Positions 1 to 33,654 of a stretch of DNA of 64,000 nt are shown here, one piece after another. Source of the DNA: a virus. Its lineage: Duplodnaviria > Caudoviricetes. Under the pieces are notes generated by a model that worked only from the letters and a program-made list of their open reading frames with translations, was not told the origin of the DNA and did not search any database. The stretch spans positions 128,001 through 192,000 of IMG/VR virus record IMGVR_UViG_3300020576_002947; one strand, given 5' to 3'. A program made the position numbers and the translations under genes. Each line of letters begins with the position of its first letter. The stretch's first letter is position 1.

Positions 1-3000
1 TAGTTTCTGGGTGATCATCCCAGCTAAACCATTTAACTTCAGTTAGTATATCTTGATCAAGAGTTTTTAGTTCAGAAGCATTAAAATCTAAGCCAAACTT
101 TGTCTTATCTACTAAGTCGAGAAAAGACTTTTTCTGTCTGTCTGAAAGTAATACTCTAGCCGCCTCTCTTAATGCAGACGCTTTCATACCTCTTTTAAAT
201 AACATGAACATTACAGTTGGCATCACAAGTCTACGCAAGACATAATACGTACTTAGTTTAGTAAGCATTACTAGTGTACTATTAATGATTCTTAGACTTT
301 GTGTTGACCCAGTAGGCATAGCAAGAGCCATCGGAGATACAAAAGTTACCAGTCCATTTTCTAGATCAAATCTATGAATTACTGTTTTGGCTCTAACAGG
401 GCCATACAATCCTGACCTATCATCCTGAATAACAATAATATCTCTTGGCTTAATAGTAGGTTGTCCTGTTAAGGTGATCCAACCAGAGTACATATTAGCT
501 ACTGAGTCCGCTAAAGTAGTTACAAGAGAGTTATGAACTGCAGGGGTTGTAGGTGTATGTGCAATTGTAGAAGCAAATCCAGGAACCCAACTAAATAAGT
601 TAGTAATTCTTTGTTGGATATTACCAAACCCACCACCAATAGCTGTAAGATAGATACCACTATCTACAGTAAGTGTTCTTCTAGAAGATGGTATAATATC
701 ATCGTCTACGCAAACACTGAGAGATCTTTCAATTGAATCTCCTCCAAACCATTGACTATAGGTCTGTATACCAACTGCGTCAGTAAATACTTTACTAGCG
801 TCAGGTTTAATTGAGTTTTGAATCAAGTTTATCCCTGTTTTGGCAATATAGAACTGAGTAAAAGGTTTCCAAGCTAGTGTAGAAGTTAAATACTCAACAT
901 CCTTAAAACGTTCACCTGCAAGAGGTCTACCATCATACTCATAGCCTAATTTCTTAGCCCTGTATTCAGCCTTGTCCTGAGCAGACCAAGTAGGAAGTAT
1001 AAAGTTCTCAAAAAGATGTTTCTGACCAGCTTGATTCATCTGATTAAAAAAGCTTCCTTCATATTTCTTCTCAGCAACTCCTTTCGGATTCCAGATCATC
1101 TCAGCCCACTTTGCAAGATTATGTAACCCTCCAGGAATAGAGAGATCCCAGAAAACCTCTCCTAGTTTTAAAGGCCATAGCGTTTCGCTATCTCTCTCAG
1201 ACTGCTTCTCTAAAGCTTTGGAAACAGCGGAAGCATTCTGTCTTATGTATTTACCATCTTGCCTAGCTAGATCTGGGTCAACAGGGGATATACCTAAATT
1301 CTCATCTGACCATAATCCTACTCGGTTTGCCTTAGCAATATTTTGTGTTGCTATTAGCTCAGCAGGAGTTTTGTCAGTATTCGATCCAGGCCTTGGTTTA
1401 ATGTCAGCGTCTTTCTCTACGTAAGCCCAAGCCATTCCAAGACGAATCATCTCTTCGTTAACATCTAGGTAGGTATTAGAATCAGCATCAAAAGCTTTAA
1501 TTTGTACAAGGAAACGGCCATATGCAGCTTCAAAGCCTACGATATCAACGACTACGTTCTTTCCTTCAATAAGTTTCTTAAGAGTTTTTGTTGACTCGAT
1601 TCCAAAACGCTGACGCTTTTCTGGTGCGTCTACATAGCGAAGTCTTGCACCGTTCATTCCGGTGATACCGAAGTTAATTGTATCACCATCTTTTACAAAG
1701 ATTTTAAGCTGGTCTTTGTTACTTCTCAGAAGTTCAAGTGACTTGGCTACTTTTGCATAACTCTTTGTGCTTTCTTTTGTTAAGAAGTCTTTATCAATAG
1801 CTGCTGCACTAGTACTAAGAAGTTCTGAAGTTTCTTCAGAGACTTCCAAGTTGTCATTAGCTTCATTAACCAGTAACGACTTAATATCTAGTGACTGATT
1901 ACCAACAGCCTTAAGCTCTTCTATTGTAGGAGAAAAGTTTTCAAGTGTTTTAGCTGTATAAGCATAGTGGCAAGGCCACCACCACTTTCCGTAGAACACC
2001 CTACTCTCAGTTCCAAACGATGTAGGACAGCCTACAAAATCGAAAACAGCCCTTCGGCAGACATCAATTACTTTGTGAGATGTAGCTTCATTAACAGATA
2101 CACTAAAATAAGTTTTCTTAGCGTTCCAATCATAAAAAGCGTAGTTATTGAAGAAGTTGTTATCAGGAGTTTGATCTAATGTAGGTGAGGCATCATAAAT
2201 ATTTACTGCAGCTTCAGCAGCATAGTGTCTAGCACCTTCAATATATACATCGCCAAAGTGAGCAATACCGTGGGACATATCCCTAAACTTACCAAAAGGA
2301 TTTAATTTTTCAAGAAAGAGTGACTTAGCACCATCAACCTGGATAATTGATTCAAGTACGATATTAGCAGGAGACTTAGAAATCCCCACCATACCGGTAT
2401 TTCTCCACACCCACCCATTGTTTGTTTGAGTATTTCCAACAGTAATTTGTTTGTTTAGTTCATCTCCATCAGATAGTGCTACAATAGTTACTAAGTCATC
2501 AGACGCTGGAAGCTCAGTAATTGCACCATTAAATACAACTGGCATTGTAGCTGCGTTACTACCATAACCCATTCGAAGATGGATTCTAGCACCAGGTTTA
2601 AGAACAAAGGTGTTGAGATAATTTCTAGCCCAGATCATCTTCATCTCATCATCAAAGTTCTTCATGATGTGACGAGCCCAGACATCACCTAATAGGCCAT
2701 CCCCAAATCCCCATTTCTTAGGATTACTTAGAACGGCTAAGAACTCATTTCTTTGGTCAACAGCCATTTCTTCTAAGAAGATTTGCTCGGCTCTGTAGTT
2801 AGTTAATGATCTGAAGACATTAGACAGGCCAATTGTTAGTACGGATGCAGGAGTCTCAACTGAAGAAACAAGCTCTATAGAGCTTACTGCTGTTCTAGTA
2901 AAGTATTGATCCCAGAGCTTCTCAGTGCCGCCTTTCCAGTAAAAACCTTCGTTGATGATTGCTAAGAAGTAAGCAGGCCATGCACCCTTTAATCTTCCAA

Positions 3001-6000
3001 AAGGAGAATGGTTTCTTAAGTCTACTGTTAATCCATAGATTGCATCCTCTGATTCAGGGAACAGAGCAAGTCTCTGCTTTCCAATCAAGACTGCCTGCTC
3101 TTCTAGACTTAGATCTTTATCTTGAAGATCGCTAAAAACGCTTAGCATGTCTAAACTAGCAAATCTTCGATCTAAACTAATATCCCTAGGCTTACCACTA
3201 GGAAGGTAATCAGTCATTACAGACCTGCTACCAGATTTTGTAGTATGGATTGTATGGTTAGCCATATTACCGCAATCCATAGCAATATATGGATTATACC
3301 CAGAGAAGAAAGGATCTAGTTTTGATGTTTCATAGAAATCAGCTTCGATACCAATAGATCTTACCCACCCTAACCAATGGACATAATAAGTATCAATGGC
3401 GTGTAGAGAATTACCTGCTGACGCAGCTTCTCGAAGATACTTTGTAAAATCATCAAAACTTTTTGCTTCATCTGCTAAAGATAGAAGTTTATCAATCTGG
3501 TCTTTATTAGTAATATAGTCGGCATTAGCTCTAGTTACTCTAAAATGAGTTTCTAGTAGTTTTACTGCTGTTCTTTTATGCTTACTAGAGTTGTATGTAT
3601 GACCAAACACTCGGTATGCATATCTAGGGCCTTTGATATTCAGTTGGTCAGGTTTAACTTCTTTAACAACCCTCTCCAAATCAAGATCACCCCAGCCAGT
3701 ATGATCTAATGCAGGTCCGTGGGCACCTAAATGTGACCTTGAATTAAAGAAGGCAAATCCTACTGAGGGTGGTATGTTGTTTTTCTGTGCATTTGCAATT
3801 AGCTCTCGAAGAGTCTCATCACCATTGGTACGAATCTGGGCAGACCCTCCTTTCCAAGTGTCAGAAACACTCTCTAATTCTTTCGACTCTAGAACCTTTC
3901 TATAAAGAAGATTCTTATCATAAACAGTAAAAGGATACAACTTATCAGCCTTCTCCATCATTCTCCAAGGTGTTACAAATGTACCTGCATCAGCAGGAGG
4001 AGAATGAGGAGTTTTAACGGTCAGAAGTGGCTTAAATTTAGAAATTTTTTCTAAGTGTTCGTAAGGAGAGTGTACTTCATAATTAGAATCAGCCCCTTGA
4101 AATGTCATCGGCTTTCTAAAGGCTGCGTTTTCTCTGTCACCACCAACCTCATCCCACCTACCAAGAATGTTTTCTCCAATATTATCAAGAAAACTTGATT
4201 GTTTCCATTGAAGTAAGAAATTGTACGTTGGGTCTGTTAGATCATGCCATTTATGGTCGCTACTAAGTCGATCTGCAATTCCTTGTGTAACAGCGGTCTT
4301 AATAGCCTTCAATCTAAAAGCGTAACTAAAGAAAATTCTTTCCTCTTCAGTACCTTTACCAAGAGCCTCTAAATCTCCCGGGTCCTCAAAAGGAATTAAC
4401 CTTTTTTCGAATTCTTTAGGAATCTCTCCTTTAAAAATATTACTCTTTTTGAAGATATCATTAATTGGTCGAGTATCAGTCCCTATGCGGTTGAAATCTT
4501 TTAGATCAACCATTTCCCCACTACTAGCCCACCATCCAAGTTCAGCACCCTTCTGATCAATCTCGGTAGCCCCCTGAGAAAGTGCTTCTACTACTTCGGT
4601 AGCTTTTTCGCCAGTAGACGCCATATACAGATTATCACCATATATGTTAGGAAGGTACTGCCCAATATTAGTAATTGAAGCTCCTCTTTGGTCTGCAGGT
4701 ACTAAACTAACTACTTTGTTATCTCCAGAAACAGGTAATTTTTCTGAGATTCTGATTGTAGATATGACTCCTGTCTTTGTGGGGCCATCTTCGTTCTTAA
4801 CTTCCTTAGGAGAGAAAACGTCTCGAGCTCCGTACTGATCAGTAGTAACTTCATCTAAAGTTGACTTAAAGTAATTCTTTTCATAGTAAACATAGAAATC
4901 TGGGTCTACATACCTACCTTGAGTCATTGTACCGTCTAAAGGCCAAGCTGCTATATTTTGTCTAGTAGCAGGAACTTCAAAGTACCTACCGCAGTGATTA
5001 AGAATCTCCTCATCCAGTGTAGACAGAGAGATATCATTTTCATCGGATTGCTCTTGCTCGCCAAACTGGGCTAGTCGGTTAAAAGAAAGAACCCACTGAT
5101 TTAACTGTGTTTTAGTAGGTAAATAAAGGTCAGGATAAACCTCTTCATGCAGTAGTGAATTCTGCAATGACATATAATCAATAGCTTTGAGGTAGGTGGG
5201 AAAAGCGTCTTCTACGCCTCTTGTTTCATCGTTATACTTTAAAGTAGTGTTTGTCTGATTATTGTACGTGTTAAGTGTCTTTAGCCTCTCTGCTTCCTTA
5301 ACCCTTGGATCAAAATCTAAGAAAGTTATTACAAAATCCCAGCTTCCAGGAGCACCGGGAGCATTACTTACTTCAATACCCGCGGGCATAACAAAATTAA
5401 TACCCATTAAGCTAAAAATGGTACCTTTTGCGTGGATATAGGCAGATCCTGGTTTTGACTTATCAAACTCGTGACGATCATCAGGAAGGTCTGTAACCGA
5501 TGAGTCTTTACTCTTTCTACTTATAGCTCTTTCAGCGAATAGATCGTAAAATCTCTGGACTTTTAGCATGGCATCATTACTCATGCAACGCCCTTCAAGG
5601 GTAATTATTTTTGACTTTGTGCCTAAGATCTGATGCTTCGGTAATTGTAAAGCTTCATGAGTAGTCACACTTAGGTTATAGCCGCCTTGGACATTTATCT
5701 TAGTAACAATTACATCTTGATCGCCTGTACTAGATAAATGCAGCCTTACATCATCCACACTAGGTACAAAAAATACATCATCAACTGCTCTAGAAAATGA
5801 AGCTGCTCTGCTATCAAAATAAGCGTTCTCATCTACTGCAACATTATAATGTAGCTTTGTAATACCAGGATCTATTTCAGCAGGAATGATCCTAATAACT
5901 GCCCCAAAGAAGTCTTGTGGGTTGACTATTGCAGCCTCAATAGTCGTTTTCATATTCCTAATTGCTTGTGCTCTAACCTCCTCTTCAGGGTTCTGAAAAT

Positions 6001-7669
6001 TAACAGTCCTTTGTAGCCTCGCATATTCCTTATCTTCAAAGTATTTTGTGATAGCATTTCTATAAGCTGCAGCATCTTGTTTGTTTTGTGTATCTGATTT
6101 TGAAATATCAACGAGAGTATCAAGACTGCTTATCTTTTGATAATATTCATTAGGAACAAGGATGTTAGCGATATCTACACCAACCCCGACCCTATTTCCA
6201 AGATGGTCTGCTAGTGCATAGTCAAAGCCTTCTTTCCAGTAGGTCCAACCCATAACCATACCAGCTAAAGATCCCTTTACTATACTGTCCCAATTAGCTT
6301 TTGAGTTGAATTTTAAAACATAGTATTCGCCTTCAGTATCGAAGCCAGCAGTATCTGATCCTTTCTCATAAGCTGGTAGCCTTTTGATATTGTCACTTGT
6401 AACCTCTCCTTTTCGAGTGACTAAGTTTTGAAGACTTCGAATAGTTTGAGCATCTGATCCTGCTGTAGTGCTTTGTGTATAGTTTATCTCAGAACCTATT
6501 TTAGATACTTGTTCTGGGCCTGGAATAGTTAAAACTATTTCATCTGAGTAGCTATAAGAAGATTTCTTCGTTGTTGCAGCCCAGAATTGATAAATGGGCC
6601 AACAGTACGCATCACTTAGGCACCTTATTTCAGGATTTTTCTTAGCCTTTTCTTCATCACTCTCAAGCAAGCTCTCAGCCCCAGCTAAGGATGCATAAGC
6701 AGACCAGAGAAATGGGTCTACTTGAATATCAAGCTGCATTGCTTCAGGACTACCAGGGACAGTCGATAGTGAATACCCTTTTACAATTACCTCATTATAT
6801 GGAATTGGGTGGGAACTACTATCATCATCCTTGTCAAGCATAGGGAATAAGCCCCCTTCTGTAATTAAGATAGGTGTTAAATTAATTTGCTCAAGTACAG
6901 GCTGAAGAGAGTTTGCTACTTCATGTTTTGAAGGTGCTAGAATAGATATAGTGTATGTTCGGTACGTAGTTCCAGCATGGTTCTTAAAGCCCCCTTCTGT
7001 TCTAATAGAAGGAACTTCCTTAATATAGGATGTTGAAGAACTAGATACTGAAGTAATATTACAGTTTCCTAGAATAGGAGCGTACCCTAACTGAGTTGTA
7101 TTGTGTGGGTATTGATAGGGTTTTGGTGTGTTTAGAAATCCAAAACTATCATCAGGAAGAAAGAGATGGTCGGCCATCTTCTGCCTTTCACGCTTCTTTA
7201 AAAACTCTTCGTCCTTTAGCGGGTCAATAACTTCTTTCTTAGTTTTTGGCTCCGAGTTAGGCTGTGTATTTTCATCAGCTGTAGAAGTGTTAGAAAATTC
7301 TAGGGACTTCTCCATCGGTTTCTTTTTGTTTGAGGTATTTATATTTAGTTTAGAACTAACAATTTTATATGTAGAAAAACTATTAGAAAGAATTGTTGTT
7401 CCTAAGAAACCTAGACCTGGTATCGTAAGCTGAAGCGTTATCGTACCTTCAAAGTTGTGCCTATAGTCTGAGTTTATAAGAACAGTTAGTAAGGAAAGGC
7501 CGTACTCACTCCTGATATGCTCAGCAAACTCTGACCAGAGAACGTAAAAAGATTTTTGTTTTCCTGGATTAGGGCCTCGGTAGTTTACTTTGTCTAGTAT
7601 AAGTGCATACTCTTGACCACCCTTTGTTTCCTTTCTTATAGAGTTTGGGCTTACTACAATATTATCCAT
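1..7669 (-). CDS. Giant baseplate hub-like/tail protein (>2556 aa, 3'-truncated by window edge) with an embedded staphylococcal nuclease domain
   Basis: ATG at 7669 (MDNIVVSPNSIRKE...), 2 nt after the stop of 7672..8400. The same frame is open wherever hand-translated (about 7669-6680, 3840-3570, 1720-1290, 60-2). The track reports no minus-strand ORF here, as expected if no stop occurs before the edge. Hub-like motifs: PGARIHLRMGYGSNAATMPVVFNGAITE (about 2515-2600) and MYSGWITLTGQPTIKPRDIIVIQD...VIHRFDLENGLVTFVSP (about 330-495). Confidence 0.8.
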   Translation of the reverse strand, partial: MDNIVVSPNSIRKETKGGQEYALILDKVNYRGPNPGKQKSFYVLWSEFAEHIRSEYGLSLLTVLINSDYRHNFEGTITLQLTIPGLGFLGTTILSNSFSTYKIVSSKLNINTSNKKKPMEKSLEFSNTSTADENTQPNSEPKTKKEVIDPLKDEEFLKKRERQKMADHLFLPDDSFGFLNTPKPYQYPHNTTQLGYAPILGNCNITSVSSSSTSYIKEVPSIRTEGGFKNHAGTTYRTYTISILAPSKHEVANSLQPVLEQINLTPILITEGGLFPMLDKDDDSSSHPIPYNEVIVKGYSLSTVPGSPEAMQLDIQVDPFLWSAYASLAGAESLLESDEEKAKKNPEIRCLSDAYCWPIYQFWAATTKKSSYSYSDEIVLTIPGPEQVSKIGSEINYTQSTTAGSDAQTIRSLQNLVTRKGEVTSDNIKRLPAYEKGSDTAGFDTEGEYYVLKFNSKANWDSIVKGSLAGMVMGWTYWKEGFDYALADHLGNRVGVGVDIANILVPNEYYQKISSLDTLVDISKSDTQNKQDAAAYRNAITKYFEDKEYARLQRTVNFQNPEEEVRAQAIRNMKTTIEAAIVNPQDFFGAVIRIIPAEIDPGITKLHYNVAVDENAYFDSRAASFSRAVDDVFFVPSVDDVRLHLSSTGDQDVIVTKINVQGGYNLSVTTHEALQLPKHQILGTKSKIITLEGRCMSNDAMLKVQRFYDLFAERAISRKSKDSSVTDLPDDRHEFDKSKPGSAYIHAKGTIFSLMGINFVMPAGIEVSNAPGAPGSWDFVITFLDFDPRVKEAERLKTLNTYNNQTNTTLKYNDETRGVEDAFPTYLKAIDYMSLQNSLLHEEVYPDLYLPTKTQLNQWVLSFNRLAQFGEQEQSDENDISLSTLDEEILNHCGRYFEVPATRQNIAAWPLDGTMTQGRYVDPDFYVYYEKNYFKSTLDEVTTDQYGARDVFSPKEVKNEDGPTKTGVISTIRISEKLPVSGDNKVVSLVPADQRGASITNIGQYLPNIYGDNLYMASTGEKATEVVEALSQGATEIDQKGAELGWWASSGEMVDLKDFNRIGTDTRPINDIFKKSNIFKGEIPKEFEKRLIPFEDPGDLEALGKGTEEERIFFSYAFRLKAIKTAVTQGIADRLSSDHKWHDLTDPTYNFLLQWKQSSFLDNIGENILGRWDEVGGDRENAAFRKPMTFQGADSNYEVHSPYEHLEKISKFKPLLTVKTPHSPPADAGTFVTPWRMMEKADKLYPFTVYDKNLLYRKVLESKELESVSDTWKGGSAQIRTNGDETLRELIANAQKNNIPPSVGFAFFNSRSHLGAHGPALDHTGWGDLDLERVVKEVKPDQLNIKGPRYAYRVFGHTYNSSKHKRTAVKLLETHFRVTRANADYITNKDQIDKLLSLADEAKSFDDFTKYLREAASAGNSLHAIDTYYVHWLGWVRSIGIEADFYETSKLDPFFSGYNPYIAMDCGNMANHTIHTTKSGSRSVMTDYLPSGKPRDISLDRRFASLDMLSVFSDLQDKDLSLEEQAVLIGKQRLALFPESEDAIYGLTVDLRNHSPFGRLKGAWPAYFLAIINEGFYWKGGTEKLWDQYFTRTAVSSIELVSSVETPASVLTIGLSNVFRSLTNYRAEQIFLEEMAVDQRNEFLAVLSNPKKWGFGDGLLGDVWARHIMKNFDDEMKMIWARNYLNTFVLKPGARIHLRMGYGSNAATMPVVFNGAITELPASDDLVTIVALSDGDELNKQITVGNTQTNNGWVWRNTGMVGISKSPANIVLESIIQVDGAKSLFLEKLNPFGKFRDMSHGIAHFGDVYIEGARHYAAEAAVNIYDASPTLDQTPDNNFFNNYAFYDWNAKKTYFSVSVNEATSHKVIDVCRRAVFDFVGCPTSFGTESRVFYGKWWWPCHYAYTAKTLENFSPTIEELKAVGNQSLDIKSLLVNEANDNLEVSEETSELLSTSAAAIDKDFLTKESTKSYAKVAKSLELLRSNKDQLKIFVKDGDTINFGITGMNGARLRYVDAPEKRQRFGIESTKTLKKLIEGKNVVVDIVGFEAAYGRFLVQIKAFDADSNTYLDVNEEMIRLGMAWAYVEKDADIKPRPGSNTDKTPAELIATQNIAKANRVGLWSDENLGISPVDPDLARQDGKYIRQNASAVSKALEKQSERDSETLWPLKLGEVFWDLSIPGGLHNLAKWAEMIWNPKGVAEKKYEGSFFNQMNQAGQKHLFENFILPTWSAQDKAEYRAKKLGYEYDGRPLAGERFKDVEYLTSTLAWKPFTQFYIAKTGINLIQNSIKPDASKVFTDAVGIQTYSQWFGGDSIERSLSVCVDDDIIPSSRRTLTVDSGIYLTAIGGGFGNIQQRITNLFSWVPGFASTIAHTPTTPAVHNSLVTTLADSVANMYSGWITLTGQPTIKPRDIIVIQDDRSGLYGPVRAKTVIHRFDLENGLVTFVSPMALAMPTGSTQSLRIINSTLVMLTKLSTYYVLRRLVMPTVMFMLFKRGMKASALREAARVLLSDRQKKSFLDLVDKTKFGLDFNASELKTLDQDILTEVKWFSWDDHPET

Positions 7670-8402: not shown

Positions 8403-11400
8403 TTAGGTAGCACTCTCCAGATAGTTATAGGCATCTATAGAATTAATTCTATTTTTGCGATTAAGGGATGAACTAACTACAACACCCATACTACCTAGTT
8501 CTTTAGATAGAGCGTGGTAACCTATATCAGATTGACGTGCAGAGTCTGAAGATCCATTAATAGCAATCGACATGTTGCTGTATGATTCGGCAGAGAACGA
8601 AGGACTACCATAGCTATCTTGATTAATACCTTCCGAGTCTATTTCCCCATTAGGTGTCATTGTAGTCTCACTTAAAACATCTTCCTTTAGTTTAGGAGCT
8701 GAAGCTAGCGCAGCTAATCCCATTGCACCTAACATTAGCCCAGAACCCCAGTTTTCCATCATCTCTCTATGGGCTTTTTCAGTAAGAGTCACTCCATTTT
8801 TACTAGTAGCTTTTAGCTTTAGCATATTTCTATGCTGAAGCTCAGACTGACCTAGAGGATTTGATTCAGTAAATCTATTTTGTATTGGTGGTGAAACTTC
8901 TGGACCTACACCTAGATTAGCATCGGCCTGTAGTCTATCCATAGGTTTATAAGGTTGAACCCCACCATCTAGGAAAGAGTCAACTCTAGCTCCCATCTCT
9001 TCAGGAGAGAGTTGTGAAAATCCAGGTTCATTCATTAGGTTCTGAAGAAAGTTAGCACCATCTTTATGCTGCAGAATTTGTGTGGCCTTGTCTTTTACCT
9101 TAGCAAGTCTGGGATCTGTTGAAAGTAAGGTAAACTCATTATTTTCTACGCCTGAGAGGGCTGTTAGAATACCCTCAGTCTCGTACTTGGAGACCAGAAG
9201 TTTTTCATAATCCTGACCTTTAAATTCCTTAGCTCTATCTAGCACAAAACCAGCAGTCTCAATACCAGCTTCTCTAAACATATCAGCGATTCCTGTATTG
9301 TTTTCAACCCCCTCAGCAACATTTCGAGCCATTGATTGAAGAAGCTTTGCTGTAATTCTTTCCTTTTCTGACATTGCTATATCAGCATCTATTGTTCCTA
9401 ATGCGGTTTCGGCTATCAGTTTTGCCCTCTCATCTGTTGCACCAAAACCCTTAGCCACTACTTCTAATCTAGACTGTAATCCTTTATCAGGAGCAAACAG
9501 TTTCTTAACTGACTTACTGATGACATCACTCTCGTCTGAGTAAGCACCTGCCTTTTGTGTTGAATTAACATAGTCACTATAAGACTCGACTTCATCTAGA
9601 CCTAACTCTTTAAAAGCGCCAAGCTCATCTTCTAACCCTAGTTCTTTGATTGCAGAGAAAGCTGCACCTGCTTTTCCTGTAGATTTATCATCTCCAGCAT
9701 ATTTTAAAAGCTGGTAAAGTCCCTGACCAATAGTGTTTTGGGCAACGTTCTGGCCTCTGCCTGAGGCGAGTGGGTCTGTATTTAGAAAAGCCCTGGCACT
9801 TAAGTTGGAGATCCCTTTACCATCAACATTTCTAAAACCAAAACTAAGGCTAGGGGCACTCTCTTGCAAAGTTACTGTTTCTCTCATAGCTAAAGCAGCG
9901 ACCATAAAAGCTCTGAACGCATTAGAGTCAGAAGACATTATTGCCTGTCTCATATCAGGACTAGCCATTACCCACGAAGAAAATGTTTCCAAAGCACTTT
10001 TATCTACCGCGTTTGGTGTAAGTGCTTTAAATACTTCGCCAGCTACAGCTTCAGTAAATGCTTTTTTATTAGTACCTGAGAATTGAGTTGAAAACCGTCT
10101 AAGCTCAGGGTCCTTTTCTAAGAACTGATCTAAGAATGTAACCCCTTGTGCCTCTTCTCCTAGTAATCTCTTTATGTCGTCTAGTGTACTATCATTAACC
10201 CTATACTCTCTGCCATTAGTTAACTTTTGGATTACAGTATCAACAAGATTGTCACCATTTCCTTCTATATAAGTCCCTGCCGCGACACGAGCTTTAGCTA
10301 GTACATGAGCGGTATCAAAATTATTTACTACAGCTTCAGTTGATAATGAAGTAAACTTAGGGAATGGGTTTAATTCATTAATCATCCTTTTTGTTGACGA
10401 AGCTACGTTTCTAGCTCTTTCTTCTGCTACTAACTTAGCGGACTGTTTGGCAGCTGGACTTGTATCGTTAGCATCAATAACCCGTCCAGAAAGAAGGGTA
10501 TTAACTTCACCCTCAGTCATTACTCTCTCCCAAACTAACTTACTTCCTGCATTAGTACTACTTGCTATCGCTTCACCAGTGTTAACACCTGAGATTGATA
10601 CTCTAAAAAATTGTTCTCCATCTACAACCTCAGCCCTTATACTTTCAGGAGTAATTTTAATGATTGACCCAGTAATATCTCTAATTCTAGTTCCTTCAAG
10701 AGCAATAGCACCATCTACTTTGTTGATTGTAGCACCCTTGAGAATATCAGAAGCATCCCTATCAAGAAGATAAGCCCAGACGTTATCTGCCACATCATCA
10801 TGGGCTTCTTTCATTCCAAACATCCAAGCTCTTTTACTGCCTGTTTTAGCTGCTTTTAACATCTGATCTTGCTGGTTAAAGTTTCCTGTAGTAGCAGCAC
10901 CAGTTGCCATGGCAAGAAGCTCTTTTGAGACGCCTTTTTTGATGTCTAGTATTTGTACTCGCCTAATAAGATCGTCTACCTTACTAGCACTAACTCCACT
11001 AGTACCTTTTAAGAATCTAAGTTCTCTAGCAAGGATACCAAAGTCAGCTCGGCCTTGAGTAGGAATAAAAAGAATCTCATCCTTTTCCATCTCTAAAACT
11101 AAGGTTTCTATTTGATCAATCCTAACTAGTCCATTGGTTGCAGATAAAGGATTACTCTTACTAGCTTTTTGAGGAGTAATTTGAAAAGCAAATCTATTAC
11201 CATTAGGTCCAGACAGATTTTGATCATCCATAAGCTTCTTCATAAAAGCTTGGGTAGCTGCTTTAAGCTCATCTTTGTCAGTAATTAGCTTTAATCTTTT
11301 AAATTCTTCTTGGTAGGCAGTATGGCTTCCAGAACTTTTTATTTTCTCTAGTGCTGTTTCTATTGCGTCAAGCTGAGTCCCAGTCATTAGAGAAGCACTA

Positions 11401-13763
11401 CTAACTCGCCAACCTGGAACTGCAGTACCATCAACATCGAAAGGAAGGCTTTCTATATCAAGGTAAGCAAAAGATTGTCCATGTTTTTTAGGGTCTTGGA
11501 GAGCGGTTAGTAAACGCTTAGCTTTTCCAAGTTCTAAGTCCAATCTTTTCTCAGCAGTTGATTGTACTATCTTCCCATCTTCAATAGCAAAAGGCTCAAA
11601 AGACTTTGATGTTAAGACTCTTGTTGTAGTATTTCCCTTAGAAGTAACGCTTACAGCTAAAGCCTTGCCTTCATCAATACCAGTTTGGGCAGCTTCAGCC
11701 ACATCATTATAGCGACCAGGAGTAAGAATACTCATAGTAGGCCTAGTTTCAGGTCTAAATGGATAAAGTTTAACTTTATTATTAACTTCCATTTTGCCAA
11801 TCGTTTCTTCAGGACCAGAAATTCCACTAGGCATTCTTTCAGATACCATAGTAGTACTTAATTGACTATAGTCAGCCCCCTCAGGTATAGTGTCAGTATA
11901 CATAATCTGTCTTACTGAATTGTGGTCAGTATATCTTCTTCTATACATTGGCTTAGTACCATCTACATGGAATCTAGGTGCTGCTAGCTCATGTTGAACA
12001 TATCTTTGAGTTTCAGTTAAAATAGATGAGTCTCTAGTAGCAGAACTATGCTTCTCAGCACCTCCAATAAGAGCTGAATGGTACTCAAGCTCAGTTTCAA
12101 ACATAAATGACGTGGCTTGCTCAGTAGACATTCCAACATCAAGACTCTTATCTAAAGCTATTGTCCTCATTTGTAAGACTGAACCAACAGTCATACTACC
12201 ATCAGGACCAATAGAAGAAGGCATTAAATCTTTAAGATCTTCTGCTCCGCCAACAAGAGTCTCTAGTTCAATACCTGATAGATAGATATGGCCTAGTCCG
12301 ATAGCCTTCGTAAGATCTTGTACACCTTGAGTTGTCTTTATGTTATACTGCTGACCATTAAAAGAAAGAGTTTTTTGGGAAAGACCTTGTATTAACTGCT
12401 CTGTTTTAAATCTATATACTTTAAAACTAGGATCGTTTTCCCCTACTTGAGATGTAAGTCTAATAACTTCCTGTAAATCTAGTTTTCCTGAGGCAAGTTT
12501 TTCAGCATAGCCTGCTTTTGAGGCTCTGGCTGTTTGTCTCCTACTCTGAAACTCTCTGTTGTTTGCAGCAAACTCGTCTAGGTACTGACGAAGGGAGATA
12601 GGTACGTTATCACCATCAATAGGCCGAAAAGCATCTTCACCAGTAAATAATCCTTTACTTCTTAGCATATCAGCCATTACTTTAAGGATTTTACCCTCAG
12701 TTTTTCCAGAAGGCATACCATCTTTTGATGCTATAGTGCTTGTAATATTCTCAATAGCTTCCTCACTACCATTGAAATTAGTACGACCAATCTGATACTC
12801 CCAGAACTTAGTCATCTCATCTCTATTGGCAAACTCTCTCCCCATTAAAGATTCTGTGTATCCTACCAGCATTTGGGCCAGCTTTCTTTTCCCGTCAGGA
12901 CCTACTTCGCCTGTATATGGCTTTATCCTAAAATCTGTTATTGGGTTTGTAAAAGGATGGCTTGCTCCAAATGGAAGATCTTGTTCTATTAAGGAAGTTC
13001 TAACGAACTCTGCGGCTTCTCTAATAGTATTAGAATCTGATCCCAATTGATTAACAGCAACAGTTGGGTCTACTGCACCTACTGAGGTAGAAGCAGCCAA
13101 TCCAAAATCAGCTAATCTGCCTAGCATACTAGTTTTGAGAGTGCCTCCTTCGTCAGGCACAATCATGTTATAAAGCATCTCGGCAGAGCCAGCGTTGTAA
13201 ACTCCTGCTACTTTTTGGCCTGATTTGTTTATGCTTTGGTCTAGGAAGACTGAGAACTCTTCGATTATATCATCAGAGTATTCTTCTGGAAGTGCGCTTC
13301 TAAACGCGTCGTAAATCTGTGGTTGGGTAAATCTAAATCCAGCGCCTTTCCCGATTGATGATACTATTTGTTCTATACTACCATCAATGGTTAGATCAGG
13401 AGCCATAATCAAGAATGTTCTTAATGACGCGTAGTCAGAATCAGTATTAAGCTTATGTAAAAAATTACCCTGTCCAATCGCGTTTCCTAGCCCATCGGCA
13501 AGTTTTACACCTTTTTTAATTCTTGCTACAATTTCATCAGGTGTTTCTAGATTAAGATTACTTCTAATTATATTTATAGGTATATCTTGGACAACTTTAG
13601 CAGACCATGATTTAGATTCCTCACTAAAAATACCTGCGGCAAAAACAGTTATACCTGCTGTTCCAAAAGCAACTACGTTCTCTATTACAAAATCAAGACC
13701 ATCTTCTTGATCTCTTGCAATATCACCAGGCTCCAAATTAATATTAGTAGTGTAGAAATCCAC
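8403..13763 (-). CDS. Giant putative virion protein (1786 aa) with DEDDh (DnaQ-like) 3'-5' exonuclease domain
   Basis: Motifs FAYLDIES (D769, E771), QGRADFGIL (D907), EAHDDVADN (H988, D993); hydrophobic helix WGSGLMLGAMGLAALASA near the C-terminus; GTG start; located in the tail module. Confidence 0.7.
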   Translation of the reverse strand: MDFYTTNINLEPGDIARDQEDGLDFVIENVVAFGTAGITVFAAGIFSEESKSWSAKVVQDIPINIIRSNLNLETPDEIVARIKKGVKLADGLGNAIGQGNFLHKLNTDSDYASLRTFLIMAPDLTIDGSIEQIVSSIGKGAGFRFTQPQIYDAFRSALPEEYSDDIIEEFSVFLDQSINKSGQKVAGVYNAGSAEMLYNMIVPDEGGTLKTSMLGRLADFGLAASTSVGAVDPTVAVNQLGSDSNTIREAAEFVRTSLIEQDLPFGASHPFTNPITDFRIKPYTGEVGPDGKRKLAQMLVGYTESLMGREFANRDEMTKFWEYQIGRTNFNGSEEAIENITSTIASKDGMPSGKTEGKILKVMADMLRSKGLFTGEDAFRPIDGDNVPISLRQYLDEFAANNREFQSRRQTARASKAGYAEKLASGKLDLQEVIRLTSQVGENDPSFKVYRFKTEQLIQGLSQKTLSFNGQQYNIKTTQGVQDLTKAIGLGHIYLSGIELETLVGGAEDLKDLMPSSIGPDGSMTVGSVLQMRTIALDKSLDVGMSTEQATSFMFETELEYHSALIGGAEKHSSATRDSSILTETQRYVQHELAAPRFHVDGTKPMYRRRYTDHNSVRQIMYTDTIPEGADYSQLSTTMVSERMPSGISGPEETIGKMEVNNKVKLYPFRPETRPTMSILTPGRYNDVAEAAQTGIDEGKALAVSVTSKGNTTTRVLTSKSFEPFAIEDGKIVQSTAEKRLDLELGKAKRLLTALQDPKKHGQSFAYLDIESLPFDVDGTAVPGWRVSSASLMTGTQLDAIETALEKIKSSGSHTAYQEEFKRLKLITDKDELKAATQAFMKKLMDDQNLSGPNGNRFAFQITPQKASKSNPLSATNGLVRIDQIETLVLEMEKDEILFIPTQGRADFGILARELRFLKGTSGVSASKVDDLIRRVQILDIKKGVSKELLAMATGAATTGNFNQQDQMLKAAKTGSKRAWMFGMKEAHDDVADNVWAYLLDRDASDILKGATINKVDGAIALEGTRIRDITGSIIKITPESIRAEVVDGEQFFRVSISGVNTGEAIASSTNAGSKLVWERVMTEGEVNTLLSGRVIDANDTSPAAKQSAKLVAEERARNVASSTKRMINELNPFPKFTSLSTEAVVNNFDTAHVLAKARVAAGTYIEGNGDNLVDTVIQKLTNGREYRVNDSTLDDIKRLLGEEAQGVTFLDQFLEKDPELRRFSTQFSGTNKKAFTEAVAGEVFKALTPNAVDKSALETFSSWVMASPDMRQAIMSSDSNAFRAFMVAALAMRETVTLQESAPSLSFGFRNVDGKGISNLSARAFLNTDPLASGRGQNVAQNTIGQGLYQLLKYAGDDKSTGKAGAAFSAIKELGLEDELGAFKELGLDEVESYSDYVNSTQKAGAYSDESDVISKSVKKLFAPDKGLQSRLEVVAKGFGATDERAKLIAETALGTIDADIAMSEKERITAKLLQSMARNVAEGVENNTGIADMFREAGIETAGFVLDRAKEFKGQDYEKLLVSKYETEGILTALSGVENNEFTLLSTDPRLAKVKDKATQILQHKDGANFLQNLMNEPGFSQLSPEEMGARVDSFLDGGVQPYKPMDRLQADANLGVGPEVSPPIQNRFTESNPLGQSELQHRNMLKLKATSKNGVTLTEKAHREMMENWGSGLMLGAMGLAALASAPKLKEDVLSETTMTPNGEIDSEGINQDSYGSPSFSAESYSNMSIAINGSSDSARQSDIGYHALSKELGSMGVVVSSSLNRKNRINSIDAYNYLESAT

Positions 13764-14203: not shown

Positions 14204-15307
14204 TTAGTTACCTATGAATCGAATTCTAACTGAATCAATATTAATGTTAAACTGATCGTCAGTATTGAATAGGACGTACCCACAGGTAGGTGCTGGGTAC
14301 TTTCCTGCATTTTCAAAGATATATGGCATTGGTTTACACATACAACCTGTGTTAACAATCAACCTTCCTTCAGGAGTATAAGCCAAGTTCATTCGATGAG
14401 AGTGACCATGGAAAAGAGCTTTTGGACTCTCAGGGATGTCTAGAAGAGGCAAGAATGTGTCTACCCATCTGAGGGCCATTTCAGCTGCATCTTTGCCACA
14501 GAAGCCGTCTAGGTGGGCTAAAACCATGTTTCCTACAGAACCTAGATTAGTTACCTCAAGATCACTGCCTAGCCTTGTATTAGGTGCTGTAGAAAAGGCT
14601 GTTACTGTTAGTAGTTCTACATTCTTAAATCTGTTTGAGATTAATTCTAGTGGATCAACGATCAGAGGAAGGATCTCAGGCATGAAGTTCTGAATCTTTC
14701 TAGAAACCCTAACGTCATGATTTCCAGAGATTAGATAAACCTTAGAAAACTTCTCAGACAACATTTTCAAGATTGCTATAGCTCTTGACAGTTCCTCTCT
14801 AACCAGTAGATGATCAATGGTCTTTCGGTGTGAAGACACCGCATACATATCAAAGAAGTCACCTGCGATAAACAATACATCAGCAGTTTCATTCATCAAG
14901 TGAGCAAGAGCCTCAGTATTCTCAAAAGGAATATGAAAGTCAGATGCAACAATACACTTAATAGTAGGACCGTCTAGTTTGCCTAGCTTTTTGATTTTAG
15001 GTATCTCACCTATAACTTCTTCTAGATTAGCTAAGGCCTCCTCTAACAACTTTCCTTTGTTAACTGGGTTAAGAGGGCCAGGTTCGTTTGAAAGAGATTC
15101 CTTCCAAAAGCGTCGGTATGCATTTACCTTTTGCCTTGCTTTCTCAGGGGAGAGCTTAAGCTTTCTAGCTAACCCTAGAACGAGATCTTCGACACCCTTC
15201 TTTTGGACAAACCTTGTGTAAAAGTCAATAGCGAAGTTGCTAGGAAGTCCAAGAGCTTCTGCATGAGTGAGCAGAATTTGGGGAGTGTATGTAGTTGGTT
15301 TAAACAT
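14204..15307 (-). CDS. Calcineurin-like metallophosphoesterase
   Basis: Complete motif set: SDFHIP, AGDFFD, SGNHD, VLAH, HGHSH. Confidence 0.9.
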   Translation of the reverse strand: MFKPTTYTPQILLTHAEALGLPSNFAIDFYTRFVQKKGVEDLVLGLARKLKLSPEKARQKVNAYRRFWKESLSNEPGPLNPVNKGKLLEEALANLEEVIGEIPKIKKLGKLDGPTIKCIVASDFHIPFENTEALAHLMNETADVLFIAGDFFDMYAVSSHRKTIDHLLVREELSRAIAILKMLSEKFSKVYLISGNHDVRVSRKIQNFMPEILPLIVDPLELISNRFKNVELLTVTAFSTAPNTRLGSDLEVTNLGSVGNMVLAHLDGFCGKDAAEMALRWVDTFLPLLDIPESPKALFHGHSHRMNLAYTPEGRLIVNTGCMCKPMPYIFENAGKYPAPTCGYVLFNTDDQFNINIDSVRIRFIGN

Positions 15308-26283: not shown

Positions 26284-27993
26284 TTAGCTCTTCCTAGCAA
26301 CAGTTAGGTTAATCTGAATCTCGTTGATAGTTCTAGCAATGAGCAGACTTAGATCAACCATAACCTGTCCAATCTGATCACCTTCGACTGTCTGGTAGAC
26401 TGAGTATTTATAGCCAACACCCTCTCCACCCTGCAGACTACCTTCCGCACTGTAAGAGTCTAGAACGTCTTTAACAGCCGTCTTCATATTAGCAAGAACA
26501 GCAGGACTAGCAGCAATGCCGCAGTACCTAACCAACCTATCTCTCAGAGAGCCTAGAATTGAGTTGCATGTTCGAATAGTACTTGCCTGCCTAAAGTCGT
26601 TATTCCTATCAGCAGCAGTTGGGTCTGATAGAATTACAAGAGATTCGTTAGTTACCTGACCGTTCTTAGCAAGAACGATATAAGCACCCTTACCTAGAAG
26701 TGGATTAATGCTACCATCATGACCGACACCAAATGTCAGTTTTTGAGCAAGGTAACCAGGATAAGTATTGTCGTATGAAAGAACTCCACGAAGTCTCTTA
26801 AAGGTGAGAGTCTCACCAGTGCTTAGAGTACTATGAAGAGCAGCAATCGAGCAAGTTGGGGTATCGTAATAAACACCAAGCTGTGGATGGGTATACTGGG
26901 CGTCTGGACCAGCAACAACCAAAACTCTTCGACCTAGGTCTAAAGTCTCTCCATTAGAAGTCTGTTTAATACCATTGTACAGAAGCGGGCCTGCCTTAAG
27001 CCATTTACCTGCTGAGCTGAAGTAGCCATACTCAGTAGCAAGAAGACTGTTATTTACATAGTCCAAGATCGCTGACCGATCCCGCAGTCTTGTGGGACGG
27101 CAACCTAGATAAGCTAGACAAGGAGATGCTTCGTGAGATAGATACTCAGCAAACAAAGCCATATCAGCATAAATTGAGGTGGATGTAGAACCAGCATCTA
27201 CGATCTCATCATCAAAATAGATACAACCTAGATGGATAATGGAGGCTCTTACTTTATCACCAATCAAAGTGTTAAATGTAGAATCTTCACCAACAGCAAT
27301 CATATCAGCAAGACCCTGCTTACTTGTAGCATAGTCTTCACCAGGAGCTGTAGTACCATTAGTACCACCTGACAGGGTAACTGTACCAGAACCAAGAGCT
27401 GTTACTAGAGAAGTAAGAGCAGTGGGCCATGAGTTTCTATTGATAGAAATTGTTCTATTTCTATTAGAAGAGTTGATAAAGTCGATCAGCTCACCAATGG
27501 TCTGAGTATTAGCAAACTCAAAAGTTCTAATACCTTCCTTATTAGTTGGCTGTGTAAGTTTAAAGTAAGTAAAGCCTGACGAGGCTCCTGTACCTGCGTA
27601 AACCTGAACAGAAACACTGTTGTAGATTCGTCCAGGGTAAACTGCGCGTATATCCAGCTTATTTGAAAATGCAGACGGGGACGAAGCATACGATCCAGAG
27701 CATCTAACAAGGACAATATCCTTAGCAAGCTCATTTAGTGCCTCAACAAAGTTCTTAGCTAGAGAAGAATGAGCATCCTTCCCTGTCTCTGTTGAAGTAT
27801 TAGGATCGTTGTACCCGCTTGTATAAATAGCCGGACCAAACACCTTCTCGAACTCAGAGTAATTTCTTACTCGAATTGGTGTATTGAGAGGGCCGTCTAA
27901 GGCTGTGCCAATGATTAGCAGAGGCTCACCAGTAATGGTCTGCCCCTGATCTCCAATGACTCCACCTATTAGATTAGTTGTAATTCCGTTCAT
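26284..27993 (-). CDS. Contractile tail sheath protein
   Basis: 569 aa; N-terminal LIIGTALDGPLNTPIRVRNYSEFEKVFG, LSGGTNG, C-terminal QVMVDLSLLIARTINEIQINLTV; GAGGA RBS. Confidence 0.85.
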   Translation of the reverse strand: MNGITTNLIGGVIGDQGQTITGEPLLIIGTALDGPLNTPIRVRNYSEFEKVFGPAIYTSGYNDPNTSTETGKDAHSSLAKNFVEALNELAKDIVLVRCSGSYASSPSAFSNKLDIRAVYPGRIYNSVSVQVYAGTGASSGFTYFKLTQPTNKEGIRTFEFANTQTIGELIDFINSSNRNRTISINRNSWPTALTSLVTALGSGTVTLSGGTNGTTAPGEDYATSKQGLADMIAVGEDSTFNTLIGDKVRASIIHLGCIYFDDEIVDAGSTSTSIYADMALFAEYLSHEASPCLAYLGCRPTRLRDRSAILDYVNNSLLATEYGYFSSAGKWLKAGPLLYNGIKQTSNGETLDLGRRVLVVAGPDAQYTHPQLGVYYDTPTCSIAALHSTLSTGETLTFKRLRGVLSYDNTYPGYLAQKLTFGVGHDGSINPLLGKGAYIVLAKNGQVTNESLVILSDPTAADRNNDFRQASTIRTCNSILGSLRDRLVRYCGIAASPAVLANMKTAVKDVLDSYSAEGSLQGGEGVGYKYSVYQTVEGDQIGQVMVDLSLLIARTINEIQINLTVARKS

Positions 27994-32412: not shown

Positions 32413-33654
32413 TTAGCTCAATGTACGAACGGTGAAGAGAGCCTGATGGTTCTCGGCCACACGAATGTTCAAAGCCTTGCTGATAGCGCGACCACCGTCC
32501 TTAGTGGCTGTATCAAAGTACTTTCTGATCTTAAGAATGCTTGCATCCTTGAACCAATCCTCCATGCTGTCGATAGTGGTTGGACCCTTCTCAAGCAGCC
32601 AAAGAGCATTAGCAGCGTCGATCATGTACACACTAGCCAGAGCAGCTGTAGGAGTGTATCCTGAGCCGGGGCCACCTGACAGAGCAGTAGGACCATCTGA
32701 GATGTACATAGCGTAGTAGGGAACATGCATCAGATTGTAAGGCAGAGGTACGGCCTGTTCAAACTGAGGAGCAGAGTTCCAGAAGTTAGTGCCAAAGCTA
32801 CCTTGATGGTAGAACTGTGCCTTCATGATCGGATCTTGAGTAAACACAGCCCAGGTCATGGGATGAGCAAGGACGTGGCTTGGCTGGTACTGGCGTGAAA
32901 CCTGAATACTAACCATGCTCATAATGTCGCGGTGGTCAAGAGTATAGTTGGCATTGCCTGACACGTCCACACCTACCGTATGGTAAGTAGTATCGGTCGA
33001 GCTATTGTCAATAACTGTAACACCCTGGTCCAGCTTCTCCTTCAGCCTGCTTTCAACGAAGCGATTCATCGCATTGTTAGCAAGTCGAATATTAAGACCA
33101 ACCAAATCAAGGTTAGCTGACATTCTGGCTTCGTCACCGATAGCCATCTGCAGACCAGCCTTCTTGGCCTTCATATTTGCCGACTCAACGCTAGCGCTGA
33201 TCTTAGCTGTTGGATATTCTCCATTCAACTGAACCCAGTCAGCAGCCACAGCACCAATGTTGAACATTTCAACAGTCATGCTATTGTCGTTAGCAGGGAG
33301 AGAAACTCTCTGAGCTACCGCATTCTGGAGGAACAGACTAGGCTCCTTAGGCTCCCTAAGGATCTTAGTGACTGTCTCTTCCCAAAGAGGAAGTACGTCA
33401 ACACCCTGGAGGGCATCCTTTAGACTGCCAAGGAATCCGGGTACGTTCTCTAGACTTACGTTTAGTTGAGGAGTCTCTGTACCCTTCCTATCTGTCCCTG
33501 TCCACATAGCATGGAAGAGATCAAGAAGTCTCTCCTTAGTGTCCCAGGCCTCTTCAGGTGTTGCTGAGTTAGCAGCAGCAAACTTTTCGACAAGGGCGTA
33601 ACTCTCGGAGTTTGACTTATATTCTGTAAAGATTTTTCTTAGCTTATCGTTCAT
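32413..33654 (-). CDS. Major capsid protein (probably HK97 fold)
   Basis: 413 aa; portal-protease-decoration-capsid order; motifs LNGEYP, KAKKAGLQMAIGDEA, PSHVLAHPMTW, KIRKYF; strong terminator downstream. Confidence 0.85.
   Translation of the reverse strand: MNDKLRKIFTEYKSNSESYALVEKFAAANSATPEEAWDTKERLLDLFHAMWTGTDRKGTETPQLNVSLENVPGFLGSLKDALQGVDVLPLWEETVTKILREPKEPSLFLQNAVAQRVSLPANDNSMTVEMFNIGAVAADWVQLNGEYPTAKISASVESANMKAKKAGLQMAIGDEARMSANLDLVGLNIRLANNAMNRFVESRLKEKLDQGVTVIDNSSTDTTYHTVGVDVSGNANYTLDHRDIMSMVSIQVSRQYQPSHVLAHPMTWAVFTQDPIMKAQFYHQGSFGTNFWNSAPQFEQAVPLPYNLMHVPYYAMYISDGPTALSGGPGSGYTPTAALASVYMIDAANALWLLEKGPTTIDSMEDWFKDASILKIRKYFDTATKDGGRAISKALNIRVAENHQALFTVRTLS

Follow-up and report, generated by a model that had tools for sequence, protein, structure and literature searches.

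The closest described relative of the protein considered here is gp147 of Bacillus phage 0305phi8-36, a "hyperplastic homologue of T4 gp27 hub" whose link to gp27 required a comparison between hidden Markov models (HMM-HMM comparison) (Hardies, Thomas & Serwer 2007, PMC2147016). In the same family, the BtI1 hub carries an N-terminal SNase (staphylococcal nuclease) domain, the purpose of which was "not obvious," and intragenomic capture of stand-alone genes was proposed for such domains (Hardies et al. 2007, PMC2147016). Canonical hubs, such as Mu gp44 (1wru, 9ki1_G), the MuSo2 and Neisseria hubs (3cdd, 3d37), the pyocin R2 hub (6u5h_A), and T4 gp27 (1k28_D), are 320 to 390 amino acids (aa) long and contain no enzyme within the fold; the T4 lysozyme resides on a separate spike protein, gp5. 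Evolved VgrG proteins from T6SS (type VI secretion system) machines join a gp27-like hub module to enzymatic cargo, carried as C-terminal extensions after a gp5-like beta-helix. Here, we describe a different arrangement in a 64,000-nucleotide stretch of tailed-phage DNA (IMG/VR record IMGVR_UViG_3300020576_002947, bases 128001 to 192000; referred to as the window throughout): an intact SNase domain inside what is modeled as the fold of a giant baseplate hub protein.

The record comprises 239,691 bp with a CheckV completeness of 94% and comes from an uncultured phage with a contractile tail. The hub gene lies on the minus strand in an open reading frame (ORF) that spans 2..7669 and is open at the window start, its final 701 codons preceding the window (L002:7896-9998, where L002 is the locus extended with the DNA ahead of the window start). 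The complete gene, L002:7896-17669(-), encodes 3,257 aa (P0002). The original prediction had placed a nuclease domain at 1295-1715. This is the right region, corresponding to aa 1985 to 2125 of P0002, but it is the minus strand that encodes the SNase peptide; translation of the plus strand at 1295-1715 is full of stops. Like gp147 and its BtI1 and BwK1 homologues, P0002 is a giant protein with exchangeable enzyme domains, shares with them five collinear blocks, and is encoded after giant tape-measure-like genes and before genes for gpV-, gpW-, and gpJ-like baseplate proteins. The identity between gp147 and P0002 is approximately 24 to 26%. Gp147 has transglycosylase, NlpC/P60, and M23 domains at its termini and no SNase, whereas in the phage studied here the wall hydrolases are separate genes. 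The BtI1 SNase is N-terminal and outside the hub fold; that of P0002 is in a loop within it.

A Pfam search of the whole protein matched PF00565 (SNase) at aa 2009 to 2122 (window 1304-1645), with an E value of 6.7e-13 and a score of 49.5 bits (gathering cutoff, 21). The score was 53.5 bits for the insert alone and 55.4 bits in a six-frame search of the 239.7-kb genome, in which the hub domain was the sole SNase match. Using phmmer against PDB sequences, the domain aligned to Staphylococcus aureus thermonuclease (E ~1e-5), with D1994 corresponding to D19, D1996 to D21, R2009 to R35, D2014 to D40, E2017 to E43, Y2050 to Y85, R2052 to R87, and Y2083 to Y113. In SNases, which hydrolyze DNA and RNA to 3'-phosphates in the presence of Ca2+, D21 and D40 are Ca2+ ligands (D19 through water), and E43, R35, and R87 are catalytic. 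Conservation of these positions was also evident in a 95-row alignment composed of the insert, its counterpart in the relative P0005, and 93 of the 1540 SNase-family matches found by exhaustive search of 1.84 billion representatives. D2014, P2016, E2017, and R2052 were invariant, and D1994, D1996, R2009, and Y2050 were conserved in at least 90% of rows. An AlphaFold2 (AF2) model of aa 1905 to 2270 had a predicted local distance difference test score (pLDDT) of 92 to 98 over most of the domain. Submitted to Foldseek, it retrieved many S. aureus nuclease entries with a probability of 1.00 and a template modeling (TM) score of 0.70 to 0.75 by target, and it displays the beta-barrel (OB fold) and three helices that define an SNase. 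Hence, as had been proposed from the letters of the DNA, the domain is a real SNase in which all Ca2+-binding and catalytic residues, and the equivalent of Y85, are kept. The accompanying statement that only the D83 equivalent had changed, to Ala, was correct for that residue (A2048) and incomplete otherwise, as K84 and Y115 are also replaced (A2049 and E2085, respectively); all three are noncatalytic positions. In fold and active-site residues, the domain resembles S. aureus Nuc and small secreted thermonucleases. It has the short omega-loop form of most bacterial homologues, and it differs from S. aureus Nuc, a secreted stand-alone enzyme, in being internal to a 3,257-aa protein. The hub would thereby display an endo/exonuclease that is active with Ca2+.

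The protein around the SNase has the characteristics of a hub. In a tblastn search of cultured phages, it matched ORF147 of Bacillus phage 0305phi8-36 ("baseplate hub protein"), KLEB27-3 gp035 ("putative baseplate protein"), and their relatives, in most cases as two pieces on either side of the SNase. BLASTP delimited the five collinear blocks at P0002 aa 206 to 363, 638 to 904, 1538 to 1907, 2268 to 2498, and 3095 to 3215; they are common to gp147, KLEB27-3 gp035, and ME3_37, the hub of Acinetobacter phage ME3, and the last carries the C-terminal YPL..G.P..AG motif of the gp147-type family. For aa 1530 to 2500, folded with 24 homologues (alignment A4), the model had a predicted TM score (pTM) of 0.58 and a pLDDT of 70 to 93 in the hub core; since no more than two alignment rows cover the insert, confidence is low for that part. 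Foldseek returned mostly hubs, namely, those of phi812, T5 (pb3), Mu (gp44), MuSo2, pyocin R2, and T4 (gp27), along with VgrG. VIA-align gave Z scores of 21.8 to the Neisseria Mu-like hub 3d37_B (293 of 316 residues; root mean square deviation, 2.9), 20.4 to Mu gp44 9ki1_G (318 residues), 14.9 to T4 gp27 1k28_D (310 residues), and 14 to 17 to VgrG1 structures (chain residues ~5 to 353); for the canonical hubs named above, the shared fold covers some 300 residues at Z 15 to 22. In each hub comparison, the aligned range was approximately model residues 34 to 929, equivalent to aa 1563 to 2458 and including both flanks of the insert. The segment that bears the SNase therefore lies within one hub fold and interrupts it, in agreement with the earlier claim that the domain lies between hub-like motifs (Z 14.9 to 21.8 on alignments that span both flanks).

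Profile searches were less informative. No Pfam family besides SNase was matched by the whole protein or, to an E value of 10, by five subsegments outside the SNase. The PHROG family phrog_20474, labeled "endolysin," matched aa 1537 to 1908 (E 2e-84), and the A4 profile gave one weak match to PDB sequences, that of the phi812 hub (E 0.018). Shorter homologues of aa 1530 to 2500 were absent at an E value of 1e-5 or less. The gene order (sheath, giant tail proteins, hub, SLT, VanY, gp25-like, Baseplate_J) fits a tail/baseplate module. In view of the modeled structure, the host protein is a true gp27/gp44-type baseplate hub, and with the hub fold, gene position, collinear blocks, and SNase residues described above, P0002 is a member of both the 0305phi8-36 gp147-type hub family and the SNase family. 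Insert (alignment A2) and hub (A4) were folded separately; two composite hub-plus-SNase alignments, A1 and A3, were discarded, as their SNase rows were misaligned onto the SDGDEL and MGYGS hub motifs.

The features of the hub gene in the window are as follows.

2..7669, minus strand: giant baseplate hub gene, window part encoding aa 1 to 2556 (ORF list and translation; five-block collinear homology with 0305phi8-36 gp147 and KLEB27-3 gp035)
296..2983, minus strand: gp27/gp44-type hub fold, aa 1563 to 2458, broken by insertions (AF2 model m2338136f553a, VIA-align, Foldseek)
1949..3058, minus strand: hub block C, aa 1538 to 1907 (BLASTP to gp147, gp035, and 50 metagenomic homologues; invariant columns in A4)
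905..1948, minus strand: lineage-specific hub-loop insert, aa 1908 to 2255 (gaps or nonhomology in A4 in all relatives but P0005; loop-length survey; model)
1298..1702, minus strand: SNase domain, aa 1990 to 2124 (Pfam match at window 1304-1645; alignments; model)
1514..1690, minus strand: predicted active-site codons, D1994 (1688-1690), D1996 (1682-1684), R2009 (1643-1645), D2014 (1628-1630), E2017 (1619-1621), Y2050 (1520-1522), and R2052 (1514-1516) (alignment to S. aureus nuclease, conserved columns)
176..904, minus strand: hub block D, aa 2256 to 2498 (BLASTP, alignment A4; weak profile match of the same motif to the phi812 hub 9euf_E)

Block C contains the RIHLRMGYGS...PVVFNG motif and terminates in ...RVFYGKWWWPCHYAY; in alignment A4, its end reads ...FYGKWWWPCHYAY (approximately aa 1906). 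Block D opens with ...KPFTQFYI...NLIQNSIKP (approximately aa 2268 in A4) and contains MYSGWITLTGQPTIKPRD. Between them, the SNase insert of about 350 aa occupies one loop of the hub fold. In the model of aa 1905 to 2270, a disordered linker is followed by a confident helix (aa 1965 to 1983), the SNase (aa 1990 to 2124), a long helix (aa 2132 to 2162), and a helical C-flank of moderate confidence. Approximately ten strands, or 140 to 190 residues, follow the insert, roughly as many as gp27 domains 3 and 4 comprise; the insertion thus appears to be near the junction of hub domains 2 and 3, as far as counting of secondary-structure elements can place it. The flanks of the insert had no homologues besides P0005 among the 1.84 billion representatives, and recognition of the C-flank (aa 2125 to 2268) in the ESM Atlas was low.

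The loop that holds the insert is a variable site. In alignment A4, the insert region is gapped or nonhomologous in all relatives except P0005, a protein from a Logan assembly that is 92% identical and is encoded in the same gene order. A short linker joins blocks C and D in distant homologues, and the members of the nearest clade (P0006 to P0014; 34 to 44% identical) have longer C-D segments that are mutually nonhomologous. Measured with two flanking HMMs at 60 related loci from IMG/VR and prokaryote genome contigs, the loop was 9 to 32 aa long in 45 loci, 99 to 207 aa in 14, and 536 aa in 1, compared to 361 aa in P0002. At none of the 60 loci did the loop, or any ORF up to 10 kb away, contain an SNase, but L017 and L024 encode an N-terminal SNase on the hub ORF itself. 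The 536-aa insert is in the hub ORF 1023-8288 of L048 (IMGVR_UViG_3300000367_000028). A large group of homologues of 3,300 to 3,900 aa (P0025 to P0052) has a C-D gap of approximately 1,300 to 1,600 aa without a Pfam label.

Comparison of P0002 with P0005 yielded a ratio of nonsynonymous to synonymous substitutions (dN/dS) of 0.15 for the SNase (dS 0.49), the same as for the whole gene. The ratio was 0.056 for the C-flank and 0.04 to 0.05 for the hub blocks. The two SNases differ at 19 residues, none of which is catalytic. The low ratio and the untouched catalytic residues argue that the domain is maintained by selection; as judged from this single sequence pair, it is under purifying selection. 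The C-terminal ~750 aa of P0002 (aa 2500 to 3257, L002:7896-10170(-)) are K/E/A-rich, predicted to be helical, and fast-evolving, with 61% identity and a dN/dS of 0.30 relative to the P0005 counterpart. They end in a block (aa 3095 to 3215, ...YPLFSGGVPYTAGILGHAG...) that is conserved out to Bacillus phages and ME3. The GC content of the insert (0.40) equals that of the window. The P0002 SNase is 36 to 40% identical (68 to 83 bits) to small stand-alone SNases of 150 to 230 aa, compared to no more than 27% (25 bits or less) to the SNases of other hubs, and its closest database relative is approximately 40 to 48% identical. Its greater similarity to stand-alone enzymes argues for separate acquisitions, and by these sequence comparisons the P0002 SNase was probably acquired independently of those on other hubs.

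Nucleases recur on related hubs. Among 55 giant homologues scored by their precomputed Pfam labels, three carry SNase (P0002, P0005, and P0046) and three, of about 3,000 aa, carry Endonuclea_NS_2 (P0018, P0020, and P0022); M23, LysM, or NlpC/P60 labels are present in about four. The original prediction that hub cargo is normally a peptidoglycan hydrolase is therefore too strong for this family. Rescanning placed the P0046 SNase at the extreme C terminus (aa 2805 to 2882) and matched Endonuclea_NS_2 (PF13930) at aa 1058 to 1136 of P0018 with 34.9 bits against a cutoff of 27. Subthreshold N-terminal SNase matches were found in P0029 (18.2 bits) and KLEB27-3 gp035 (16.1 bits). A single-sequence phmmer search with the SNase was too insensitive for the 55 homologues; Pfam and a custom HMM recovered the other hub SNases. 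A survey of homologous hubs, proposed together with the prediction, thus locates SNases elsewhere on the hub in P0046, ME3_37, L017, and L024 and in the same loop in P0005 only. In P0018, P0020, and P0022, Endonuclea_NS_2 is directly upstream of a DUF6046 match, which coincides with conserved block B. Another hub relative, P0011 (3,506 aa), contains an intein (Pfam Hom_end, LAGLIDADG_3, and Intein_splicing) at the equivalent of P0002 aa ~1704 (window ~2558), within RIHLRMGYGS, the most conserved hub motif; a 384-aa gap in the BLAST alignment of P0011 is due to this intein.

A cultured member of the family, vB_AbaM_ME3 (KU935715.1; 234.9 kb), has a hub of 2,329 aa, ME3_37, in which PF00565 matches aa 1126 to 1241 with 53.2 bits and hub blocks C, D, and E align with those of P0002. 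Unlike in P0002, its SNase precedes the hub fold, and an M23 peptidase (aa 1301 to 1401) comes after the SNase. The two SNases are ~27% identical, and therefore they were probably acquired separately. The resemblance to evolved VgrG proteins, which may be analogous as tip-carried enzymes, is confined to the hub module: only the gp27-like part of VgrG aligned to P0002 with VIA-align, no gp5-like part was matched in P0002, whose enzyme is housed within the hub fold instead of forming a C-terminal extension. P0002 is not an evolved VgrG. SNases on gp147-type hubs are already known, from the literature since 2007 and from ME3. What is new here is the position of the enzyme within the hub fold at a hypervariable loop, the splitting-off of the wall hydrolases as tagged genes, and the evidence of independent SNase acquisition.

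We lean toward an action of the SNase outside the cytoplasm, on nucleic acid associated with the extracellular matrix or cell envelope, and consider this somewhat probable. The domain is grafted into the hub loop between two predicted helices of the insert and, because hubs are trimers, three copies would be present at the tail tip of each virion. The substrates of this Ca2+-dependent nuclease would be DNA or RNA that is extracellular or associated with the envelope, such as matrix extracellular DNA (eDNA) or surface-bound nucleic acid, cleaved ahead of the tail tip during adsorption or penetration. In this role, the domain would be an accessory enzyme of the tail tip, comparable to the peptidoglycan hydrolases of related hubs. 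Three points favor an extracytoplasmic action. Characterized members of the SNase family are secreted or located on the cell surface and depend on millimolar Ca2+; the domain forms an inner part of a structural fold, and no mechanism for its release is visible; and this type of loop holds variable, presumably exposed additions in relatives. A literature search for characterized virion- or tail-associated nucleases found nothing relevant.

Several observations weigh against this reading. Close to the channel through which DNA leaves, a nuclease would put the genome of the phage itself at risk unless it is held at a distance or is inactive. Two residues with a part in substrate binding by the S. 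aureus nuclease, K84 and Y115, are replaced; nuclease activity of any hub-borne SNase is a prediction, and it is from homology that we infer the presence of the hub in the virion. The linkers are of low confidence in the models, which do not fix whether the loop faces outward or toward the channel or spike. The terminase large subunit (TerL) is at most 24% identical to those of the nearest cultured phages, of which ME3 provides the best match. Relatives point to no host or envelope type: the cultured ones are very distant, and matches in prokaryote genome collections are mostly metagenome-assembled genome (MAG) bins of mixed taxa.

Alternatively, the hub tip might enter the envelope on sheath contraction and carry the SNase into the periplasm or cytoplasm, where it would degrade host, plasmid, or competing-phage nucleic acids for host shutoff or antidefense in the manner of nuclease VgrG/T6SS effectors. 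The hub fold is common to VgrG (Z 14 to 17), an unrelated nuclease fold, Endonuclea_NS_2, occurs on hubs of the family as would be expected for toxic cargo, and the fast-evolving C-terminal 750 aa might be an ejected or extended part. Nevertheless, we regard such delivery as unlikely: the domain is within the structural fold of a 3,257-aa protein and not terminal, with no evident release site; its chemistry needs Ca2+ far above the cytoplasmic level; an injected nonspecific nuclease would encounter the incoming phage DNA; and no cognate immunity-like gene was seen beside the hub. To a broader proposal we give less credence still, namely, that the C-D loop is a dedicated, hypervariable cargo-display site of a jumbo-phage clade and that the SNase is an infection effector, released or exposed on contraction, whose targets are the nucleic acids of the host, of plasmids, or of rival phages or else a surface barrier made of DNA. 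If true, no earlier functional equivalent of VgrG spikes armed with nucleases would be known from phages, and this one would have arisen several times independently on this hub family.

A role in binding only, in which the OB-fold SNase attaches to nucleic acid or another polyanion (eDNA or teichoic-acid-like polymers) as an adhesin, or keeps the tape measure or the leading end of the DNA in place within the hub, would make catalysis irrelevant. SNase-like OB folds of the Tudor-SN type are noncatalytic binders elsewhere, and the subthreshold scores of the hub SNases of P0029 and KLEB27-3 gp035 suggest that decay is tolerated in some lineages; yet all catalytic and Ca2+-binding residues are kept in P0002 and P0005 despite a dS of 0.49, which a pure binder would not need, and we see a slim chance for this explanation. 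The probability that the domain is a neutral passenger, a recently captured stand-alone nuclease gene without a virion role in a permissive loop, is very small. Relatives do hold unrelated inserts of 99 to 536 aa in this loop, the domain is closer to stand-alone SNases than to other hub SNases, and the intragenomic capture proposed by Hardies et al. (PMC2147016) would fit. The dN/dS of 0.15 denotes purifying selection, however, base composition is the same as in the surroundings, no stand-alone SNase gene is left in the genome, and the distance to the nearest database relative implies that the capture was not recent. It is very unlikely, finally, that hubs not yet assembled break down the DNA or RNA of the host at a late stage of infection, to salvage nucleotides or to aid lysis. 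Phages often encode nucleases that degrade host DNA, and the hub domain is the only SNase in this genome, but a late structural gene is an odd site for a host shutoff enzyme, cytoplasmic Ca2+ is low, and the nuclease would share its compartment with replicating phage DNA.

Tail-tip hubs are usually thought to carry cell wall hydrolases. The gp147-type family repeatedly has nucleases instead or in addition, with SNases at the N terminus, in midprotein, at the C terminus, or inside the hub fold and Endonuclea_NS_2 in other members. This recurrence suggests that nucleic acid on or close to the cell surface is a real obstacle or target when these large phages infect. A permissive loop within the hub fold itself is able to accommodate an entire enzyme. 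Were the enzyme active on virions, it would matter for phage penetration of eDNA-rich biofilms and for hubs engineered as enzyme carriers, and the cultured relative ME3 makes the question directly testable.

The genes around the hub are those of a structural module. Upstream are the genes for TerL (40085-42508), the major head protein (32413-33654), and the sheath (26284-27993), as well as those for a 2,136-aa protein, a metallophosphoesterase, a 1,786-aa protein, and a 242-aa protein. The 1,786-aa protein (window 8403-13763(-)) had no PHROG or Pfam match, and phmmer against PDB sequences returned nothing relevant. Immediately downstream of the hub and ahead of the window start are an SLT transglycosylase of 200 aa and a VanY/M15 peptidase of 225 aa; a 132-aa gp25-like sheath initiator and a 369-aa Baseplate_J protein come next. 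The SLT (L002:7291-7893(-)) and VanY/M15 (L002:6610-7287(-)) proteins share an N-terminal RA..DFYRIGLI tag (15 of 34 residues identical, E 7e-6) and are unrelated outside it; the tag may dock both enzymes onto the hub or tail. The metallophosphoesterase gene (window 14204-15307(-)), located in the tail module between the genes for the giant 2,136- and 1,786-aa proteins, encodes a calcineurin-like protein of 367 aa (PF00149, 34.3 bits; PHROG "metallo-phosphoesterase / DNA repair exonuclease"). In the baseplate operon, a glycosyltransferase-like gene of 450 aa (L002:3150-4502(-); phrog_7162, E 1.5e-25) is situated between those for the gp25-like protein and Baseplate_J.

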